A stretch of 64,000 nt of DNA from an uncultured delta proteobacterium (GCA_963792965.1 CAWBYW010000016.1:192001-256000), one strand, 5' to 3'. Numbered from the stretch's first letter, positions 6,589 through 29,308 are shown. Notes: generated by a model from the sequence alone, not told the origin. Program-made: numbers and translations.

Positions 6589-7108
6589 ATGAAAAAAGTT
6601 CCCCTGTTCGTTTTACTATCAGTTCTGGCGTCCCTAACGGCGCTCGTAGCGATCCCCGCCTTTGCCGGGGAAAACGCCACGCCCGAGGAGGTGATCGCCA
6701 AAGTCAACGAGGCATCGGCATACCTCATCGAAAAGGGCGACGCGGGCCTGGCCTCGGTTTAACGACCCCAAGGGCCCGTGGGTCTGGAAAAATACCTACG
6801 TCTTCGTGTATGACTGTGATAAGGGAGTCTGCGTGGGCAATATCACGCCGGGCCTTGTCGGAAAAAAGATCCAGGACATCAAGGACGCCAACGGCAAGCC
6901 GACCGGCCTTGACCTCTGCGAAGCGTCCAAGAGCCCCAACGGGAAGTGGATCGAGTACGTCTGGAGAGACCCGAGCACCGGTGAGATGAAGCCGAAGCTC
7001 TCCTTCATCTACAAGGCCCCCGGCGCCAAGTACACCGTCTGCGCCGGAATCTACAGCCCCGAGGGAGTCACCGCCGCGGATCTCAACAAGAAACTCGAAG
7101 GCAAATAG
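6589..7108 (+). CDS. Second standalone Cache domain protein (frameshift at about 6757)
   Basis: Paralog of the previous gene. Removing one base restores FNDPKGPWVWKNTYVFVYD and joins ORFs 6577..6762 and 6806..7108. Confidence 0.8.
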
Positions 7109-7126
7109 TATCCCCGCGAAGATAGC

Positions 7127-7162
7127 AAAAAGGGGCGTTCCCGCCGGGAACGCCCCTTTTTT
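7127..7162. terminator. Bidirectional rho-independent terminator
   Basis: AAAAAGGGGCGTTCCC-GCC-GGGAACGCCCCTTTTT between convergent genes. Confidence 0.9.
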
Positions 7163-7191
7163 ATGTTCTATATCGAGGGCCTTTGTCCTTC

Positions 7192-7713
7192 TTATGCCTT
7201 CCGACGTTCAACGATCTGTTGGGCCTTCCTGTCGGAGTCTCCCATCAGATAATAGAGGGCGACGGCCGCAAAGATTGCGTAGAGGGGAAGCTTGGGAATC
7301 AGGTAGTGGTTCATATAGAGGTAGATCCCGGTAAAATAGAGGACGTTGTAGAGGCAGAATACAAAGATGTCGATCGAGAGGAGCGTCAGGAGTCTCTTCT
7401 TCCCCCCCGGGCGGAAATTCCAGTAGGAGGCCGAAAACCAGATGAAGAGCGGCACCGAGACGAGGTAATAAAGAGAAAATGTGCCCGACAGGAAGAGGTC
7501 GAGGCCATTCGGGTCCCGGGGAATGCCCGAGAGCGAGAGCGTATGCGTGAGGTATCCCACGAGGAGCGAGAAGTGTGAGAAAAAATTGATCGAGAGGTTG
7601 AAAAAAGAGACCGTCATCCCGAAGAAACCGGCGTACCAGAAGCCGAAGGGGAGCCCCTCGTTGAGCCGATAGGGGGGGAAAAGGATCTCCATGAATTTTC
7701 TTTGTTCTGTCAT
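7192..7713 (-). CDS. Hypothetical membrane protein (about 4 TM)
   Basis: MTEQRKF start with GGAG RBS directly after the lgt stop; hydrophobic segments. Confidence 0.7.
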   Translation of the reverse strand: MTEQRKFMEILFPPYRLNEGLPFGFWYAGFFGMTVSFFNLSINFFSHFSLLVGYLTHTLSLSGIPRDPNGLDLFLSGTFSLYYLVSVPLFIWFSASYWNFRPGGKKRLLTLLSIDIFVFCLYNVLYFTGIYLYMNHYLIPKLPLYAIFAAVALYYLMGDSDRKAQQIVERRKA

Positions 7714-7714
7714 C

Positions 7715-8584
7715 TCATCTCCTCGGGGCTTTAAGCCCCTTATGCGTACGGTGGCCCGTCGTTTTTTTATCCCGGTCGCCGTCTGTCGGGCGCCTGCCCG
7801 GTTTTGTAATGCCGTCGATGAGAGCGACGCTGTTTTTCTCGCGGATGCGATAGTAGAGGACAATCCCGACGATGACGGCGACGATGCTGATAAGCTGGGA
7901 GGTGGTGACGCTCCCCCACAGCCATGAGCCCCGCGGGTCCCCGCGGAACGCCTCAACGATACTCCGGGTCGCGCCATAGAGAAAAAGATAGGAGAGGATC
8001 TGCTCTCCGCGGAATCGTACCTTGTCTCTCCGGAGAACAAGCACGGCAAAGATGGCGAAGTCAAACAGCATGTCGTAAATCTGGGTCGGGTGCAGCGCCA
8101 CCCCTAACGGCGCGATCCCGGACTGGGTAAAGGTAATGCCCCAGGGGAGGCTTGTCGGCTTCCCGTAGCAGCAGCCGGCCATAAGGCAGCCGATCCGCCC
8201 GATGCCCTGGCCCAGCGCGACGAAGGGGATGGCGATATCCACCCAGACCCACCCGTCCAATTTCTTGGCCCTGAAATAGATCAGCGCCGCAATGAGCGCT
8301 CCGACGAAAGCCCCGTACCAGACCAGCCCCCCCTCCCAGAGCATGAGGATCTTGAAGGGATAGTGCAAGTAATAGTCGAAATTGACCAGGACGTAGACAA
8401 GCCGGGAGCCGACGATGGCCGAAAGCAGGACCCAGAAGGCAAGGTCGATGCCCGTGTCGACGGAGATCTGCCGCTTCTTCAGCTGGAAGAGAAAAAGCGC
8501 AAAGGCGGCCAGAAATCCCATGGAGACAAAAAAACCGTAGGTGTAAACGGTGACCACCCCGAAGGAATAGAGGATCGGATGCAT
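7715..8584 (-). CDS. lgt: Prolipoprotein diacylglyceryl transferase
   Basis: GSRLVYV, WEGGLVWYG, GRIGCLMAGCCYG, HPTQIYD. Confidence 0.95.
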   Translation of the reverse strand: MHPILYSFGVVTVYTYGFFVSMGFLAAFALFLFQLKKRQISVDTGIDLAFWVLLSAIVGSRLVYVLVNFDYYLHYPFKILMLWEGGLVWYGAFVGALIAALIYFRAKKLDGWVWVDIAIPFVALGQGIGRIGCLMAGCCYGKPTSLPWGITFTQSGIAPLGVALHPTQIYDMLFDFAIFAVLVLRRDKVRFRGEQILSYLFLYGATRSIVEAFRGDPRGSWLWGSVTTSQLISIVAVIVGIVLYYRIREKNSVALIDGITKPGRRPTDGDRDKKTTGHRTHKGLKAPRR

Positions 8585-21589: not shown

Positions 21590-22579
21590 ATGGATCCGAA
21601 GCGCTATAAGACTCCCGTCGCCCTCCTTTCCGTGGTGTCCAACTCGATCCTCGTGATCCTGAAGTTCGTCATCGGGATCTTGATCGGGTCGGTATCGGTC
21701 ATCTCCGAGGCGATCCACTCCGGGGTCGACTTGGTGGCCTCTTTCATCGCCCTGTTCTCGGTTAAAAAATCCGCAAAGCCCGCCGACGACGAACACCCGT
21801 TCGGCCACGGAAAGGTGGAGAATATCTCAGGGACCATTGAGGCCATCCTCATCTTCTTTGCCGCAGGGGTTATCATCAACGAGGCGTTCCATAAGCTGGC
21901 AAACCCCCAGCCGCTGGATATGGTGGGGTGGGGCTTAGTCGTTATGCTCATTTCGTCCGTCCTGAACCTCGTCGTTTCTCACCTCCTCTTTGTGGTCGGC
22001 CGCGCGACCGAATCGGTGGCGCTGGAGGCCGACGCCTGGCATCTCAGGACCGACGTCTATACTTCGGCGGGCGTCCTCTTCGGCCTCCTTATCATCTGGG
22101 CCGGTAAGCGCCTGATGCCCACCGTCAACCTCAATTGGATCGATCCGGTGGCGGCCATCGCCGTGGCGCTCCTTATCGTCCGCGCCGCCTACCTGATGGT
22201 CATAAAATCGGCCCGCGACATCCTCGACGTCAGCCTGCCGGACGAAGAGCTCTCCCAGATCCGCGACCTGATCCTCAGGCAGGCGCCCGACGTACTCGGC
22301 TTTCACGACATGAAGACCCGAAAGGCCGGCTCGACCCGGTTCGTGGAATTTCACCTGCTGGTGGACGAGGATATGTCCGTTCTAAACTCGCACCGAATCA
22401 CCCAGGTCATCGATGACGACATAAGCGCGCTCTTCCCCGATGCCCAGGTAACGATACACATCGAGCCGTGCGACAAGACCTGTCCCTCCGAGTGCGTCAA
22501 GAACTGCATCCTGACGGAGAAGGAGGGGATCTCCCGGGGACGCCCGATCATGGCGACAAGACAAAAGGGCGAAATATGA
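21590..22579 (+). CDS. Cation diffusion facilitator (FieF-like), copy 1
   Basis: SEAIHSGVD, PADDEHPFGHGKVE, ADAWHLRTD, IHIEP. Confidence 0.93.
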   Translation: MDPKRYKTPVALLSVVSNSILVILKFVIGILIGSVSVISEAIHSGVDLVASFIALFSVKKSAKPADDEHPFGHGKVENISGTIEAILIFFAAGVIINEAFHKLANPQPLDMVGWGLVVMLISSVLNLVVSHLLFVVGRATESVALEADAWHLRTDVYTSAGVLFGLLIIWAGKRLMPTVNLNWIDPVAAIAVALLIVRAAYLMVIKSARDILDVSLPDEELSQIRDLILRQAPDVLGFHDMKTRKAGSTRFVEFHLLVDEDMSVLNSHRITQVIDDDISALFPDAQVTIHIEPCDKTCPSECVKNCILTEKEGISRGRPIMATRQKGEI

Positions 22580-22675
22580 GGCCGGTTCGACCGGGCAACC
22601 ACGAGACGGATGCCCCCGCAGGCTCGCCCGGGTGGTTTCGCAAATAGGGGACATAAAACGAAACCCTCATCTCTT

Positions 22676-23629
22676 ATGGATCCGAAGCGGTATAAGACCT
22701 CAGTCGCCCTCCTTGCGGTGGTGTCCAACTCCATCCTTGTCGTGTTCAAGCTTGCCGTCGGCCTCATGATCGGCTCGGTCTCCGTCATTTCCGAGGCAAT
22801 CCATTCCGCCGTCGACCTCGTATCATCCCTGATCGCCTTCGTATCGGTGAAAAAGGCGTCGCGCCCCCCCGACGAGACACACTCCTTCGGCCACGGCAAG
22901 CTCGAGAATGTCTCCGGGACGATCGAGGCGTTCCTTATCCTTCTTGCCGCGGGGTGGATCATCGCCGAGGCGGTCCACAAGCTGCGCCACCCCGCCAGCG
23001 TCTCATCCGTTGGCTGGGGGGTCGTGCTGATGTTCTGTAGCGCGTCGGCCAACTTCATCGTATCCCATATCGAGTTCGTCGTGGCCAGGGCTACCGAATC
23101 GGTGGCCCTCGAGGCCGACGCCTGGCACCTGAGGACCGATGTCTATACCTCGGCCGGGGTCCTTGCGGGTCTTCTGACGATCTGGATCGGGGGTTACCTC
23201 GCGCCCGGCGTGAACCTCGTCTGGATCGATCCGCTGGCAGCCATCGCCGTGGCGCTCCTCATCGTCCGCACCGCCTATGGGATGATCATCAAGTCGGGGC
23301 GGGATATCTTCGACTTCAGCCTCCCGGCCGATGAGGTCGCAAAGATACGGGACGTGATATCGCGGCAGGCCCCCGAGGTAATCTCGTTTCACGGCATGCG
23401 CACCCGCAAGGCCGGCCCGACCCGATACGTCGAGGTTCACGTAATGGCCGACCGCTCCATGTCGCTCGAAGATTCACACCGGCTCTCCCGAAATGTCAGG
23501 GATGAGATACGCTCCCTCTTTCCGGACACCCACGTGACGATCCACGTCGATCCCTGCGACGGGACCTGCCTCCCGGACTGCGTCGATAACTGTTCGAGCC
23601 CGGATAGAAGAAAACCCCGGGCGGGATAG
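22676..23629 (+). CDS. Cation diffusion facilitator (FieF-like), copy 2
   Basis: Tandem paralog with the same start (MDPKRYKT) and the same motifs. Confidence 0.93.
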   Translation: MDPKRYKTSVALLAVVSNSILVVFKLAVGLMIGSVSVISEAIHSAVDLVSSLIAFVSVKKASRPPDETHSFGHGKLENVSGTIEAFLILLAAGWIIAEAVHKLRHPASVSSVGWGVVLMFCSASANFIVSHIEFVVARATESVALEADAWHLRTDVYTSAGVLAGLLTIWIGGYLAPGVNLVWIDPLAAIAVALLIVRTAYGMIIKSGRDIFDFSLPADEVAKIRDVISRQAPEVISFHGMRTRKAGPTRYVEVHVMADRSMSLEDSHRLSRNVRDEIRSLFPDTHVTIHVDPCDGTCLPDCVDNCSSPDRRKPRAG

Positions 23630-23701: not shown

Positions 23702-24921
23702 ATGAAGGCGATCATCTATGACTTTTCCATTGCGCGCTATTTGCTGTACCGCCCTCGGCGCGATCACGAAAGAGCACCTATACGAGCCCCGTCTCGCCCA
23801 TCAGGCTGTCCGAACTTCCCGACCCACAGCTCCCCGGCCCCGAGTGGGTCGTCGTGAAGACAAGGATGTCCGGCATCTGCGCCTCGGACATGAGCGCCAT
23901 CACGATGAAGGAAAGCCCGACCCTCACTCCCTTCGCCTCCTTCCCCTTCATCCCCGGCCACGAGGACGTGGGGACCATCGTCGAGGCGGGACGGGGCATC
24001 CGCCCGTGGAAGGTCGGCGATCGGGTCGTGGTCAACCCGGCCCTCTCGTGCGCGGCGCGCGGCCTCATGCCGCCCTGCCCGTCGTGCGCACGGGGGGAGA
24101 CCTCCGTGTGCGAGATGGCGGCCGAGGGCAAAACGGCAAAAGGCCTGAGCACCGGCTACTCACACGACACCGGCGGCGGCTGGAGCCCGTACTTCCTCGC
24201 GCACCGGTCCCAGCTTTACTCGCTGGACGGCATTGCCGACGAAGAGGGCGTCATGATCGATGCCTTCTGTTCAGCCCTCCATCCGGTCATGAGCCACCTC
24301 CCGAAGAAAGGACAGTCCGCGCTGGTCATCGGGGCGGGGCCCATCGGGCTTTCGGCGATCCAGGCAATCCGCGCCCTCGCGCAGGGCGTCACGATCATCG
24401 CGCTGGATAAATCGGCTGCGAGCATCACAAGGGCCCGCGAGGCGGGGGCCAGCTTTGCGCTCGGGGCCCGAACGGGCGCCTCGATCTACGAAGAGGTGGC
24501 CGAGATTACCGGGGCGCGCGTTTACAAACCTCTTATCGGACCACAGATCCTTATGGGCGGCGTCGATACGATATTCGACACCGTGGGGCGCGGCTCGACC
24601 ATCGAGATGTCGCTGAGGCTCCTCAAGACGGGGGGGACCTACGCCCTCATCGGCCTTGCCGCCACCGAGCGCCTTGATCTGACCCCCCTTTGGTTCAAAG
24701 AGCTCACGATGGTCGGCTCGCTGGGCTACGGCGCACAGGTATATAAAGGAAAACAGACTCACACATGGGACGTTGCGCTTGATCTCATTTCAAAAAAGCG
24801 GGTGCGGCTGGCCCCCTACGTCACCCACACGTTCGGCCTGAGCGAGTGGCGAGCGGCGATCCGGACCAACCTGAACAAAGAAAGGTACGGCGCGGTCAAG
24901 ACGGCCTTCGTTTTTGACTGA
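23702..24921 (+). CDS. Zn-dependent alcohol dehydrogenase (MDR family); apparent indels at about 23750-23780
   Basis: GICASD, GHE, structural Zn cysteines C..CPSC...C, GAGPIG. AGGAG RBS before ATG 23702, which is out of frame with ORF 23854..24921. Confidence 0.88.
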
Positions 24922-25081
24922 TTGGCGCACCGATGCTCTCCGAGATGCTCCGGGCCGGCCGAAATGTGCCCTACGGCCCTGAATATGAATTTTTCAAAAA
25001 GCGCAAAAAATACTTGATATTTTCGACTTTTAAGTTTATATATAAAAAAATCAAAATCTAAAAAAAGAGCCGAACCTCCCT

Positions 25082-26149
25082 ATGAAAACGTGGATAGGAC
25101 TCATTATTTCCGACGAGAGGCTTGCACGAACGGTTCAAACCCTTCTCAAGGTCAACAGCGCGGCCCAGGTCGTCGGGACCTATACCGACGCGAAAGAGGC
25201 GGCGCGCGACCTTAAAGATAAGGGTGACGTGCTGGTCATATTCGGCATCGGGCCCGATCGCAGGGAGTTCCTGAAAAACCTCAGGGTGATCCAGCTTTCG
25301 GGTCCGTACCCCGTCCTCGGGGTCGGCACCGCTGCCGACGCATCGCCCCTCCTCTTTGATGCCTTCAGGCTCGGGATGCTCGACTTCATCTCCCTCCCCC
25401 CGGAGGAGATCGAAAATCCTACGGATTCGCTCCTCAAGGAGATTATGGAGTCAATCGACGCCCTCTCGGCCGGTAGTTCCGACCGGATCAGACGTGTGGC
25501 CTTGAAACCGTTCAAGGAGACGGAAAAAGTCTCGCCCTCGGATCAGGCATCCTATTACGTCGCCGTTGGCGTTCCACGAGGCGGAGTCAGCTCGGCGGTC
25601 AGGCTCCTTTCTCAGTTCCCCCGGAGGCGCGATACCGCGCTCGTCGTATCCCTCCCGATACCTCAACAGTCCGTGGCCCCGTTTATCGCGGATCTTAAGC
25701 CCTATACACAGTGGTCAGTTCATCCCGCCCTCACGGACGGAAAGATCCAGGGCGGTGGCTGCTACCTCTTCTCGACACAGGCGCAATACACGGTGGAAGG
25801 ATCCATCGACGGAAAGTGCAGGATTGTCACACGGGCTGAAGGCGCATCACCCATCGACTCCATCATGGAAAATCTTGCGGGCTCCTTCGGGGGGTCGGTC
25901 GTCGGCCTGCTGCTGGAGGGGACCGGAAAAGACGGGGTCGGCGGCCTTTCCGCCGTCAAGTCAAGAGGCGGCACCACGTTGACGATCAAGGCGGGTGGAG
26001 GCGTCCTGGGTGGCCGGCCCTCCGCGGCATCTGCAAAGGAATCCGCCGATTTGCTGGTCGATGGTGACGAGCTGGCCAAAGCGCTGACCTCTTTCATGGG
26101 TGAGATGCAGGATATCACCAACATAAACCGTATTCTTAATTATCAATAA
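25082..26149 (+). CDS. Degenerate CheB-like protein (pseudo-receiver plus methylesterase-like domain)
   Basis: Collinear with CheB (VVGT..DAKEA, GMLDFI, GVPRGG, SPID, VGLLLEGTGKDG..GL.AVK.RGG.T) but lacks the phospho-Asp, the receiver Lys, and the catalytic Ser and His. Confidence 0.8.
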   Translation: MKTWIGLIISDERLARTVQTLLKVNSAAQVVGTYTDAKEAARDLKDKGDVLVIFGIGPDRREFLKNLRVIQLSGPYPVLGVGTAADASPLLFDAFRLGMLDFISLPPEEIENPTDSLLKEIMESIDALSAGSSDRIRRVALKPFKETEKVSPSDQASYYVAVGVPRGGVSSAVRLLSQFPRRRDTALVVSLPIPQQSVAPFIADLKPYTQWSVHPALTDGKIQGGGCYLFSTQAQYTVEGSIDGKCRIVTRAEGASPIDSIMENLAGSFGGSVVGLLLEGTGKDGVGGLSAVKSRGGTTLTIKAGGGVLGGRPSAASAKESADLLVDGDELAKALTSFMGEMQDITNINRILNYQ

Positions 26150-26167
26150 CAGACGAGGAGTGGTACC

Positions 26168-27391
26168 ATGTCCCTGATTAACGAGCTTGAGGACATGTCC
26201 CTCAAAATGTCTCCGCGGTTTGTAAGAAATGTCAAGAGTGCCCTTGAGATCGCGCTGGAAGAAAAGGCACCGGTTCAGCTCGATGACGTGAAGGCATCTC
26301 TCGCCGATTTTATCGAGGCGGTCAAGATCATGGGGCTTGACGAGCTGAGAACGAAACTCGAAGACATAGCCCGAATTCTCGAAGCTCCGGGACCGGCCGC
26401 GCAGGTTCTCCTCCAATTCCGCTCCGAGTTCAACACCCTGGCCGACAATGTCCCTTCCGACGAGCGGGAGTTCCTCAAAAAAAAGGAGCCGCCCCCGTTT
26501 GAAAATATGGATGTGTCCATCGACCGGGACGTCATCGATCGGTTTACGGCGATCCCCGGCGTCGGGGAAGAGAGGGCGCGCGTCCTTTACTTTTCCGGGT
26601 TCAAATCGGTGGAAGATCTCTCGACGGCCTCTGTCGCCAGGCTCTTCGGCGTGCCGGGCATGACACTGTCCGTGGCCAAGAAAATCGCGGACCACTTCAA
26701 CCCCAACCGGCTGGTGAGGCTTGAAACCCTGGCCCGTGACGAAGAGCCTTCCACGAAGGCGGAGATATCGTTTGTCGGAAAGCCACAGCCCATCCGCGAC
26801 AGTGAAGCGGTCGCGATGGACGAAGTGGAGCCGGGCGAGGATCTCGAGCTGATCGAGCTCTTCATCGAGCGTCTTACGGAGTATCTTGACGGGGCCTCCA
26901 CAATTATTGAGAATCTTTCATCCCAATCTCTCTCCTCGGAGATGATTCTCCATCTGGAGGAGATCACCCACGAGCTCGTTAAGACCGCACGCTACATGGG
27001 ATTTGAACAGATCCACGTCGTCGCCGAGCGCCTCGAGTCAACAATCAAGGACATCATCTCCGGCGACGATCAACTGACGAAGGACACCGTCTTCTTCCTC
27101 AAGGACTCCCTCAAGCAGATCGAGACGGGCTGCGCCGGCCTTAAGAAGGGTATCGAGCGGCTCAAGGAGAAAAGAGAAGAAACCGCGGTATCCCTTGAGT
27201 ACAACATCCTGACGATGGCAAACTACTGGGGCGAGCTCTCCGATCTCTATAAGGATACCCACGAGATCCTGCGCAGGGTCTCCCAGCAGGGAACTTTCTC
27301 CACCGAAGACCTCGAGCGCCTCAGGGAAAACAGCTCGAGGCTCGACGATTTGGCAGGATCGATTTCGGAGCTCGTGGAGGACCTCTCGTAG
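26168..27391 (+). CDS. Hpt domain plus tandem helix-hairpin-helix protein
   Basis: HhH pair IPGVGEERARVL..SGFKSVEDL...VPGMTLSVAKKI; Hpt-like ELIELFIE...ITHELVKTARYMGFEQI..VAERLE. Confidence 0.75.
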   Translation: MSLINELEDMSLKMSPRFVRNVKSALEIALEEKAPVQLDDVKASLADFIEAVKIMGLDELRTKLEDIARILEAPGPAAQVLLQFRSEFNTLADNVPSDEREFLKKKEPPPFENMDVSIDRDVIDRFTAIPGVGEERARVLYFSGFKSVEDLSTASVARLFGVPGMTLSVAKKIADHFNPNRLVRLETLARDEEPSTKAEISFVGKPQPIRDSEAVAMDEVEPGEDLELIELFIERLTEYLDGASTIIENLSSQSLSSEMILHLEEITHELVKTARYMGFEQIHVVAERLESTIKDIISGDDQLTKDTVFFLKDSLKQIETGCAGLKKGIERLKEKREETAVSLEYNILTMANYWGELSDLYKDTHEILRRVSQQGTFSTEDLERLRENSSRLDDLAGSISELVEDLS

Positions 27392-27478
27392 TCGCCCGAG
27401 CCTCCGCCACATTTTCTTAACCGCCCTATCCGGGCGGCGGTATCTTACAAGCGGCTCTGAAACCGGGGGAGTGCGTCT

Positions 27479-28240
27479 ATGGCCAAGATAATTGCCGTGG
27501 TCAGTCAAAAGGGTGGGGTCGGCAAGACCACAACAGCGGTGAACCTTGCCGCCAGTATGGCGGCCCTCGAGGCGCGGTCGCTGGTCGTCGGAATCGACCC
27601 TCAGTGCGGCGTTTCAGTCTCCTTCGGCATGGACAGCAAGAGCGTCTCCTACGGCGTCTTTAACGTCATCTATCACGATGTCCCGACGATGGAGGCCGTC
27701 CGCCATTCCGAAATCAAGTTCCTCGACGTAATCGTCAATAACACCGCCAACCCCGATGAGGAGGAGCTCCTTACCCAGGCGATGAGGAAGGAACGGTTTA
27801 AGCTCAAGGACAAGCTGGCCGAGATTGACAAATTCTACGACTTCATCGTGCTCGACTGCCCACCGGCGCTCAACTCGCTCACAATCTCCAGCATGATTGC
27901 CGCAAATTCTCTCCTGGTCCCGGTACAGGGCGAGTTCTTCTCCATGGACAGCCTGGGCAAGCTCCTCAGGGCCGCGCGTGAGGTGGCAAAGAGATACAAT
28001 CCTTCCCTCTACATCGAGGGTTTTCTCCTCACCATGGTGGACCACCGGACCAACCTCGGCAAGAAGATCAGCGAGAATCTGAAGCGAGCTATGGGAGACA
28101 AGGTCTTCACGACGGCGATCCCGCGAACGATCAGGCTGGCCGAGGCGCCGCTCATGAAAAAGCCGATTATCCTCTTTGACATCAGCTCGGTAGGCACCAA
28201 GGCCTACCTTTCGCTGGCGCAGGAGATCATGACGAAGTAG
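27479..28240 (+). CDS. ParA/Soj family ATPase (no parB nearby)
   Basis: Deviant Walker A KGGVGKTT, DPQ, DCPP, PVQGE, DHRT, PRTIRLAEAP. Confidence 0.93.
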   Translation: MAKIIAVVSQKGGVGKTTTAVNLAASMAALEARSLVVGIDPQCGVSVSFGMDSKSVSYGVFNVIYHDVPTMEAVRHSEIKFLDVIVNNTANPDEEELLTQAMRKERFKLKDKLAEIDKFYDFIVLDCPPALNSLTISSMIAANSLLVPVQGEFFSMDSLGKLLRAAREVAKRYNPSLYIEGFLLTMVDHRTNLGKKISENLKRAMGDKVFTTAIPRTIRLAEAPLMKKPIILFDISSVGTKAYLSLAQEIMTK

Positions 28241-28759
28241 ACCGGACGGCTCGCCCATTCGTAATATACCTCTGAATGATACAGGAGATGCACCGAGCAT
28301 GAGCCGCGAAGAGACGTGATTGCCTTTTTCCAGATCCACTATTTTTCCACGCCACGCACACAGAAAATTCGGAGACATACAAGACGGAAGGGTTTTCGTC
28401 CAAGAGATACAGGATACAAAATACAATAGGGGATGCGCGTCAATAGCATACGCGGTCCCTGCGTTGCTCTATGTGCGGAAGGCTCACTCGTAATCCTCCC
28501 GCTTTCGAGACTCTTCCCGGTATCGCTCTTCTTGATTCACCGTAGATTCTTTAACAGAGGCGTCGTGAGCAAAACGATGGACACTAAAATATTAGAAAAA
28601 AAGTAATACTAATAGAGGCAAAGAGGGCTATTCTACGAGAGAAGGGAGCCCTGATCGAACGGCGGCATATTTCTTAGGCCTCGTGTATTGGCTCTTGCCA
28701 ACATATACTATATCTAAACCCTAAACATCTCAAACTGTTTTATTCAAGGAGGTACTGTC

Positions 28760-29308
28760 ATGGGCGACGCTGTAATCGGTCACGGAATGTTCGAGCTGCG
28801 TGAAAACGAAGAAATCTGGGGTGTCAATCGCCGTTTTGTTCTTTTCTCCAACGCACTATTACTTAACATGATGGAAAGGATCGAAGGCGTGTTGGGGCCG
28901 GTCGGTAAAAGGCAGATATATGAGGTCGGGTATTCATCGGGCAAATTGGGCGGAGAGAAGATGCGGCCCATATTCAAAGGAGGAATCGAACAGTTCAAAC
29001 AGCATGTCAACCTCAGCACTAATCTGGGCTGGGGAAAGATCAATACGATAGACTACGATGAAAAAGACGGGAAGATCGTGTTGGAGTACGTGAACACCTG
29101 GGAATCGGGGGGATACCGGGAAGTCCACGGAGATAAAAAGACGACGGGCTCGATCTGTCTGATCTCCGCGGGCCTTGCGGCGGGGGCCGCCGAGGGGGCT
29201 TTTGAGACTCCCTACGAATGCACCGAGGAGCTGTGCGTCTGCAAGGGCGATAAGGTGTGCCGATTCGTGGTAACGCCGATGGGCGAGAAACGAAAGATCC
29301 TCAAATAG
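28760..29308 (+). CDS. V4R (4-vinyl reductase) domain protein
   Basis: GWGK, C...AG..AG, ECTEELCVCKGDKVCRF. AGGAGG RBS. Confidence 0.85.
   Translation: MGDAVIGHGMFELRENEEIWGVNRRFVLFSNALLLNMMERIEGVLGPVGKRQIYEVGYSSGKLGGEKMRPIFKGGIEQFKQHVNLSTNLGWGKINTIDYDEKDGKIVLEYVNTWESGGYREVHGDKKTTGSICLISAGLAAGAAEGAFETPYECTEELCVCKGDKVCRFVVTPMGEKRKILK

Follow-up and report, generated by a model that had tools for sequence, protein, structure and literature searches.

A ParA gene with CheB-like and CheA-like neighbours in an uncultured bacterial family: a candidate positioning module for chemosensory arrays

This report concerns three co-oriented genes in a 64-kb stretch of DNA (G000:C16:192001-256000, below called the window) from an uncultured delta proteobacterium, whose genome assembly comprises 3.36 Mb in 42 contigs and is 89% complete. 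In order, the genes encode a degenerate homologue of CheB (pseudo-CheB), a protein combining Hpt-like bundles with a helix-hairpin-helix domain (Hpt/HhH protein), and an ATPase of the ParA family, and they are here called the trio (Table 1). A first-pass annotation of the window had described them as a candidate for an undescribed, phosphorelay-coupled positioning module lying behind an AT-rich promoter region, and the coordinates confirm the short gaps that it reported, of 18 bp between the pseudo-CheB and Hpt/HhH genes and 87 bp between the Hpt/HhH and ParA genes. The A+T-rich stretch is likewise present, while a scan of positions 24700-28900 with simple sigma-70 and terminator models gave nothing beyond shuffled expectation, and the promoter assignment stands on composition with no sigma-70-like match above chance. 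No membrane segments are predicted in any of the three proteins (0/3).

Table 1. The trio and nearby features, in window positions
Feature	Position	Strand	Size or basis
pseudo-CheB gene	25082-26149	+	355 aa
Hpt/HhH protein gene	26168-27391	+	407 aa
ParA gene	27479-28240	+	253 aa
A+T-rich intergenic stretch, presumed promoter region	~24985-25075	no strand	composition, directly upstream of the pseudo-CheB gene
cation-diffusion-facilitator-like gene	21590-22579
cation-diffusion-facilitator-like gene, tandem paralogue	22610-23629
V4R-domain protein gene	28760-29308		182 aa, 520-bp gap after ParA

The three proteins

The pseudo-CheB is homologous end to end to CheB hidden Markov models and to CheBs of the PDB, with a REC-like and a CheB-methylesterase-like domain (Pfam CheB_methylest, E 1.1e-20), and it scores 101 bits against the NCBIfam CheB model, whose cut-off is 342. 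Its residues were judged by alignment to Salmonella CheB (1A2O) and in a 15-row alignment of nine orthologues and intact CheBs of relatives. In the REC half, the acidic pair DD has become SD in the window copy and S, P or A followed by D across the orthologues, the acceptor Asp at the end of strand 3 is replaced by Gly or Glu (one MAFFT auto alignment puts a nearby, non-conserved Asp into this column), and Lys109 of 1A2O corresponds to Leu. In the esterase half, Ser164 and His190 of the catalytic triad are both replaced by Pro and Asp286 is kept, a Pro-Pro-Asp state found in all nine aligned orthologues; the substitutions are common to the whole set, with small variations. The description of this protein as a dead CheB is therefore borne out at the acceptor Asp, Lys109, Ser164 and His190 alike. 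An extra C-terminal tail is conserved in the family and is not found in real CheBs. A profile of 12 orthologues, run against 1.84 billion representatives, retrieved five full-length clusters (counted at 50% identity; 415-598 bits) and two fragment clusters, all at E <=5.1e-31, after which the scores fall to 169 bits and to ordinary CheB-like proteins; the Pro-Pro-Asp signature is restricted to the pseudo-CheB clusters and was seen in all five full-length ones. An AlphaFold2 model confirms the fold of the REC half (pLDDT 80-89 over residues 1-130) and is uninformative for the esterase half (pLDDT <50). As a separate observation, 55 of the best 150 representatives matching this profile (P0030-P0173) lack the Ser-His-Asp triad (AHD, SYD, AYD, GYD, TED and others), mostly with the REC pocket still intact; esterase-dead homologues may be common among CheB-like proteins, although a profile made from dead copies biases such a list.

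The Hpt/HhH protein matches Pfam HHH_5 above its cut-off (E 1.1e-9, 39 bits against 27) and Pfam Hpt just below it (E 3.8e-5, 24.3 bits against 24.6), so that of the Hpt/HhH fusion proposed earlier the HhH half is secured by Pfam, while the Hpt half rests more on fold and homology. The AlphaFold2 model (pLDDT 72) shows three domains separated by disordered linkers, namely a four-helix bundle (residues 3-93), an (HhH)2 domain (~120-177) and, at 226-406, an Hpt-like bundle that runs on into a long helical extension. At domain level, the structure matched best is the P1 domain of CheA (1tqg, TM-score 0.88 on the target, root-mean-square deviation 1.9 over 101 columns, E 0.04), and the HhH part resembles the HhH of NusA AR, UvrC and the ERCC1/XPF type. 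Foldseek with the whole model gave no match at E <=0.001, all matches being at domain level. According to Pfam, the 407-aa protein contains none of the P3, P4 (HATPase_c) and P5 (CheW-like) domains that are present in the homologous full-length CheAs. Residue H268 of the window copy aligns exactly with the P1 phospho-His of a related CheA; this column holds His in 7/16 family members and Glu, Arg, Gln or Ser in the rest, and the N-terminal bundle contains no His at all, so the fold is that of an Hpt but its phosphotransfer site is not conserved. The first 20 residues are conserved, with E8 and R17 invariant. The protein belongs to a small family of 23 clusters (counted at 90% identity). In a collection of 5.8 billion proteins no longer, fused relative was found at E <=0.001, which is weak evidence, and the fused CheA forms described below came from whole-genome search; ESM Atlas gave leads with scores of 0.78-0.84 and no match. 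On contig C7 of the same genome, a 611-aa open reading frame (G000:C7:78649-80484, inside a 638-aa open frame) is similar to the Hpt/HhH protein in the HhH stretch only (46% over 61 aa).

With neither a conserved acceptor Asp in the REC domain nor a His conserved beyond 7/16 in the Hpt column, and with no kinase in the trio, the label ‘phosphorelay-coupled’ is not supported. The derivation of both partners from chemosensory proteins is upheld by the homology of one to CheB and of the other to CheA.

The window ParA (Pfam AAA_31, E 1e-45; CbiA, E 1e-22) carries, as first annotated, the deviant Walker A motif KGGVGKT; in a 15-row alignment Q10-K11-G-G-V-G-K16-T-T-T, D40 and D126 are invariant. 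Its nearest PDB entries are Soj-type ParAs, and it is 41% identical to the genome's own Soj, which is encoded on contig C10 in a locus of the order yidC-jag-mnmE-parA-parB-bactofilin with two near-perfect parS sites just upstream. The only ParB_N matches in the whole assembly lie on C10, beside that other ParA, in keeping with the orphan status given to the window ParA. In an IQ-TREE phylogeny of 35 rows, nine trio ParAs, five from chemosensory clusters of the same family (f1, below) and two from a second family (f9) form one group (support 100/99) apart from 18 parB-adjacent Soj proteins; when three ParAs of a third family (f57) are added, the 19 proteins (nine trio, 10 che-cluster) again form one group, with an SH-like approximate likelihood ratio test (SH-aLRT) value of 100. 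All 10 non-trio members of this clade sit in chemosensory clusters. The window ParA is additional to the chromosomal Soj, differs from it and lacks a parB, and the alternative that it is a Soj parted from its parB by misassembly is ruled out by the complete parA-parB-parS locus on C10 together with the trees. A near-palindromic parS-like site with two mismatches to the consensus lies about 280 bp before the start of the window (G000:C16:191719), ~25 kb upstream of the trio.

Chemosensory clusters in relatives and the ancestry of the trio

Around the trio lie housekeeping genes unrelated to it (CDF-like transporters, alcohol dehydrogenase, acyl-CoA dehydrogenase). Scans agree with the earlier statement that the window holds no che or parB gene elsewhere and no parS, the latter giving 0 matches with up to 3 mismatches allowed. 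In the whole assembly, matches to MCPsignal, CheR and CheA are confined to contig C30 and those to CheW to C30 and C7. The sole assembled chemosensory cluster, on C30, comprises cheR, a methyl-accepting chemotaxis protein (MCP) gene, cheW, cheY, a REC-less cheB, cheA and a cheC-like gene. Its receptor has two predicted transmembrane segments and is membrane-anchored. No FliG_C match was found in the 89%-complete genome, and the C30 pathway is probably not flagellar. The CheW matches on C7 belong to a tandem pair of orphan CheW-domain genes on the minus strand (6882-7313 and 7403-7882 of locus L103, G000:C7:466000-480000), which adjoins a gene for a 519-aa REC-domain protein and is far from the C30 cluster.

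The origin of the Hpt/HhH protein was traced with a profile run against 401 genomes of the phylum. Full-length matches occur only in the window's own family f1, a group of 10 Candidatus Zymogenaceae-like metagenome-assembled genomes (9/9 and the window genome), most other matches covering the HhH stretch alone. The same profile matches inside very long CheA frames in 6/10 f1 genomes. These CheAs (1137-1264 aa) consist of a P1 domain with its His, an HhH domain and at least two His-less Hpt-like repeats, followed by P3-P4-P5, and are encoded in clusters of the order MCP(dCache)-CheY-(HAMP/TauE)x2-CheA-CheB-ParA, in which the CheB is intact. By BLASTP, residues 115-342 of the window protein align with residues 288-502 of one such CheA (L047) at 27% identity (E 7e-17), and the His-less repeats of this CheA have Gln and Glu at the acceptor position. 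The cluster of family f9 contains an Hpt protein (936 aa), a separate CheA core, ParA and then a DUF4388-REC-CheB-like protein, and that of family f57 (three genomes) has the order CheW-MCP-CheY-HAMP-CheA-ParA-REC/CheB-like in 3/3 loci fetched, with a CheA of 1319 aa whose HhH domain spans residues 501-554. Loss of the esterase triad in the CheB-like protein next to ParA is seen in the trio (Pro-Pro-Asp, 9/9), in f9 (Pro-Asp-Asn, 2/2) and in f57 (Gly-Leu/Asn-Asp, 3/3), and the triad is intact in the f1 che cluster (3/3), which holds two further CheB-like genes with degenerate triads. Because the Hpt/HhH protein is homologous to the middle of a CheA encoded beside ParA and CheB-like genes, the trio appears to derive from a cheA-cheB-parA segment and to have lost the kinase. 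That the f1 cheA-cheB-parA genes were simply duplicated in tandem in the recent past is a narrower proposal, for which the CheB tree gives no support and the ParA tree is indecisive.

Several features of these clusters stand apart from the ancestry of the trio. Between cheY and cheA, the f1 cluster (L047/L048) carries an unusual insert of two repeated pairs, each a membrane HAMP protein and a TauE/SafE-family permease. Genes for Ras/Arf-like small GTPases adjoin chemosensory clusters in two families (L011 13486-14013, on G000:C30, and L079 1417-2046, in G087), and DUF4388 is fused to CheB-like proteins in f9, f57 and f1; the GTPases and the fusions are hints of polarity-type modules.

The trio is kept throughout the family and is under purifying selection. 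The trio-type ParA and the Hpt/HhH protein occur in 10/10 f1 genomes, and in eight of these the three genes adjoin one another in the order seen in the window, contig ends interrupting the arrangement in G054 and in G217. The adjacency in related genomes on which the first-pass annotation depended is thus found, as is the separation of ParA from Soj in the trees. Since the genes flanking the trio are conserved too in the f1 relatives, synteny within the family is weak evidence alone. Six metagenome contigs extend the pattern, with pseudo-CheB directly upstream of the Hpt/HhH gene in 6/6 and ParA downstream in the 3/3 that reach far enough, and the order holds even with an Hpt/HhH copy of 30% identity. 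The ratio of nonsynonymous to synonymous substitution rates (dN/dS), computed over four pairs, is 0.12-0.23 for pseudo-CheB, 0.13-0.22 for the Hpt/HhH protein and 0.02-0.11 for ParA, and such low values indicate working proteins and not decaying genes. Conservation is strongest in ParA (65-87% identity). The C30-type CheA is present in 10/10 f1 genomes; the HhH-CheA cluster was not found in four of the 10, which keep the trio.

A possible positioning module and its alternatives

Orphan ParAs are known to position protein cargo through a partner, as in PpfA/TlpT, ParC/ParP and PomXYZ. In Rhodobacter sphaeroides, the ParA-like protein PpfA, with TlpT, partitions cytoplasmic chemoreceptor clusters over the nucleoid. 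One study describes ParC and PpfA as ParA-like ATPases of che operons that place chemotaxis clusters, and partner proteins as engaging ParA/MinD ATPases through N-terminal peptides (PMC10241942). The trio resembles ParC/ParP (Vibrio; also the ParC of H. neapolitanus) in that its ParA is parB-less, is distinct from Soj and has clade-mates encoded near cheA and cheB-like genes, a likeness of gene context. Unlike ParC/ParP, it lies outside any che operon and lacks a ParP-type CheW-domain adaptor, its partners being a dead CheB and a CheA fragment; Pfam finds no CheW or MCP domain in either partner. With PpfA/TlpT it shares a chemosensory ParA and, in family f9, a split CheA (Hpt protein plus kinase core), recalling the CheA3/CheA4 split of the R. 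sphaeroides system mentioned in the abstract of PMC6829392. By analogy with PpfA, use of the nucleoid by the trio ParA is plausible. The likeness ends at the receptor, as no TlpT-like receptor lies by the trio ParA and the only receptor of the assembled che cluster in the source genome is membrane-anchored.

The Hpt/HhH protein invites comparison with FimL of Pseudomonas aeruginosa, which is described in PMC3019171 as homologous to the N-terminal 563 aa of the CheA homologue ChpA, of whose N-terminus it is a paralogue, with Gln at both Hpt acceptor sites, polar localisation and a role in the regulation of cAMP output. Like FimL, it is free-standing and kinase-less, homologous to the Hpt region of a multi-Hpt CheA, and its acceptor His is absent or non-conserved; unlike FimL, it has an HhH domain, pairs with ParA and a dead CheB, and belongs to a different phylum. 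No Pfam match to FimL_C was obtained at E <=0.1, the presence of PF27543 in the Pfam copy being unchecked, and the ESM Atlas similarity to an Hpt/FimL_C cluster (0.78) is a lead and not a match. The protein may be viewed as a parallel to FimL in kind, more than as a member of the FimL family. A precedent for a DNA-contacting element within a chemosensory complex is FrzCD of Myxococcus xanthus, whose complexes are assembled on the nucleoid according to the abstract of PMC5716589. The HhH inside the long CheAs could play a similar part, although FrzCD uses a basic receptor tail, with no HhH in CheA and no ParA.

The ancestry of the trio in chemosensory proteins, the loss of their chemistry and the joint conservation of the three genes are shown by the sequence comparisons. 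What the trio does is a further step, and our preferred reading, to which we give about an even chance, is that this signalling-dead derivative of a chemosensory-cluster segment is a module that positions or scaffolds chemosensory arrays and is driven by ParA. An ATP-bound ParA dimer would sit on the nucleoid, as in PpfA or Soj, and would be bound by the Hpt/HhH protein acting as a FimL-like scaffold, while the latter and the pseudo-CheB would attach to the array through their retained CheA-like and CheB-like surfaces, no phosphoryl transfer being involved. The candidate array is the membrane-bound MCP/CheA/CheW cluster of C30, together with the HhH-CheA cluster in the genomes that have one. 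The pairing at the centre of this scheme was modelled by co-folding two ParA chains, two ATP and the Hpt/HhH protein, which gave a score of 0.42 (runs 0.51, 0.42 and 0.42; best control 0.00). The runs share 45% or more of their contacts, and the pLDDT of the partner is no lower than 67. The mark applied is reached by 116/157 solved complexes and 2/215 mismatched pairs, and with scores at or below 0.60 by 18/157 and both mismatches, so that passes in this range are oftener wrong than right unless the pairing is likely beforehand; the calibration is moreover only rough here, given the custom alignments and the riding ligand. The check thus lends the pairing weak support.

A number of observations weigh against this reading, among them the weakness of the co-fold. 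In a FastTree phylogeny of 62 CheB-like proteins, a long branch leads to the pseudo-CheB clade, and this clade does not nest with the intact f1 che-cluster CheB, which leaves a simple recent duplication of cheA-cheB-parA unsupported, and branching inside the che/trio ParA group is not resolved by the tree. The trio order cheB*-cheA*-parA (asterisks marking the degenerate forms) matches no parent cluster, these being cheA-cheB-parA or cheA-parA-cheB*, and in the source genome the trio is linked to no che gene, the C30 cluster being on another contig. As the C30 receptor has two transmembrane segments, a nucleoid-based mechanism is less obviously needed than for cytoplasmic arrays. The window copy has, as first noted, the ‘DHRT’ arginine, which we take to be at the DNA-binding Arg position of Soj, and 2/8 aligned trio orthologues have His there; nucleoid binding by the trio ParA is therefore an assumption, and this variation is another difference from PpfA. 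The N-terminus of the Hpt/HhH protein is not clearly basic (E6, E8 and D9 against K13, R17 and R20). In one genome (G275:C7:443039-445115, L010), several separate frames stand in place of each of the Hpt/HhH and ParA genes, the former also containing stop codons, while the pseudo-CheB is intact; the breaks could reflect decay or indel errors of long reads. Finally, as the trio and the C30 cluster both occur in 10/10 f1 genomes, their co-occurrence cannot discriminate the cargo.

Some of these observations would suit a module of the same machinery recruited to a new, non-chemosensory cargo, with the CheA-like and CheB-like folds as mere scaffolds. Such a change of cargo would account for a location away from che genes and amid housekeeping genes, for the persistence of the trio in the 4/10 f1 genomes in which no HhH-CheA cluster was detected, for the loss of every signalling residue, and for the very divergent pseudo-CheB with its long branch and new conserved C-terminal tail. 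We nevertheless regard it as unlikely, as no candidate cargo gene is kept beside the trio (the V4R gene is missing from 5/5 related loci), all known relatives of each component are chemosensory, and the C30 che cluster is there to be served in all 10 f1 genomes. Quite unlikely, in our estimate, is a role of the dead proteins as modulators or decoys of the real chemosensory pathway, occupying docking sites of CheB or CheY or forming a bridge to an output enzyme, as has been proposed for FimL, with ParA minor or merely localising. FimL offers a precedent (PMC3019171), the window copy retains H268 at the exact P1 phospho-site position, and 55 of the best 150 CheB-like representatives are triad-less, in a list biased by the dead-copy profile; the H268 column, however, is His in only 7/16, the conserved neighbourhood holds no output enzyme, and ParA is both the most conserved of the three and a constant companion of its partners.

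(HhH)2 domains often bind DNA, and the trio might instead be a DNA-partition system in which the HhH protein takes the place of ParB, binding a site of centromere type, and its conserved N-terminus, with the invariant Arg, serves to activate ParA. The HHH_5 match (E 1.1e-9), the fold similarity to HhH of UvrC and the ERCC1/XPF type, the conserved N-terminal 20 residues with invariant E8 and R17, and the weak co-fold (0.42) fit such a system, which is nonetheless very unlikely. The HhH was inherited from CheA, where it is placed between Hpt domains, and ParA groups with che-cluster ParAs and not with Soj. No centromere-like direct or inverted repeats were found upstream of the trio, and only a single weak 13-nt pair downstream; no parS lies in the window, and Pfam finds no ParB_N or other ParB domain in the partners. 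The trio sits in a conserved stretch of chromosome free of plasmid or mobile genes, and a complete ParABS is encoded elsewhere in the genome. That the trio is a functionless, decaying remnant of a lost chemosensory cluster can be given hardly any weight: the lost catalytic and phospho-sites and the frame breaks in the G275 copy are what a remnant would show, and the idea is contradicted by the dN/dS values (0.12-0.23 for the dead genes, 0.02-0.11 for ParA), by intact frames in the same order in 8/10 genomes and six metagenome loci, and by the many invariant residues.

A wider proposal built on the positioning reading is that catalytically dead CheB homologues are a class of partner or adaptor, not recognised before, for the ParAs of chemosensory clusters and that the HhH of the long CheAs tethers the complex to DNA, the trio being the minimal, free-standing form, a positioning system made wholly of pseudo-signalling proteins around ParA and without phosphoryl or methyl chemistry. 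This is a speculative extension, unlikely on present evidence.

Significance and neighbouring features

The first-pass interpretation, we infer, was right in part: the trio would be a positioning module with chemosensory adaptors, neither phosphorelay-coupled nor wholly unprecedented. As to its novelty, a search of the open-access literature found no description of a CheA with an HhH domain or of a dead-CheB/ParA pair, and chemotaxis, pili and motility go unmentioned in the text of the Zymogenia preprint. The word ‘undescribed’ has to be qualified for the trio, which derives from a chemosensory-cluster ParA arrangement of the ParC/PpfA kind and whose Hpt/HhH protein has a parallel in FimL. Its reach is limited, as the trio occurs in a single rare and uncultured family and is known from sequence and prediction; it points, however, to a wider and apparently undescribed cluster type, present in at least three families of one phylum, that combines a CheA with HhH and His-less Hpt repeats, a ParA and esterase-dead CheB-like proteins. 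Within this setting the trio is a natural ‘minimal’ derivative, which has shed its catalytic signalling residues under maintained purifying selection.

ParA/MinD ATPases are assigned to their cargos by small, fast-evolving partner proteins, and to our knowledge few types of such partners are known. If the dead CheB or the CheA fragment does act as a ParA adaptor, a new partner class would be added, and the trio would be a clean case of signalling enzymes become pure scaffolds, parallel to FimL.

A few features lie beside these main subjects. On C7, within the same locus as the orphan CheW pair, a class-I tRNA synthetase with a leucyl-type editing domain is split into two overlapping frames on the minus strand (L103 2547-4076 and 4018-5079), possibly through a frameshift or an assembly error. 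The V4R-domain protein encoded downstream of ParA was considered as a fourth member of the trio and rejected on its absence from 5/5 related loci; its paralogues include one of 52% identity on C9, the several others being weaker. Upstream, the two tandem paralogues, judged cation-diffusion-facilitator-like from sequence, are kept in the same position relative to the trio in relatives.

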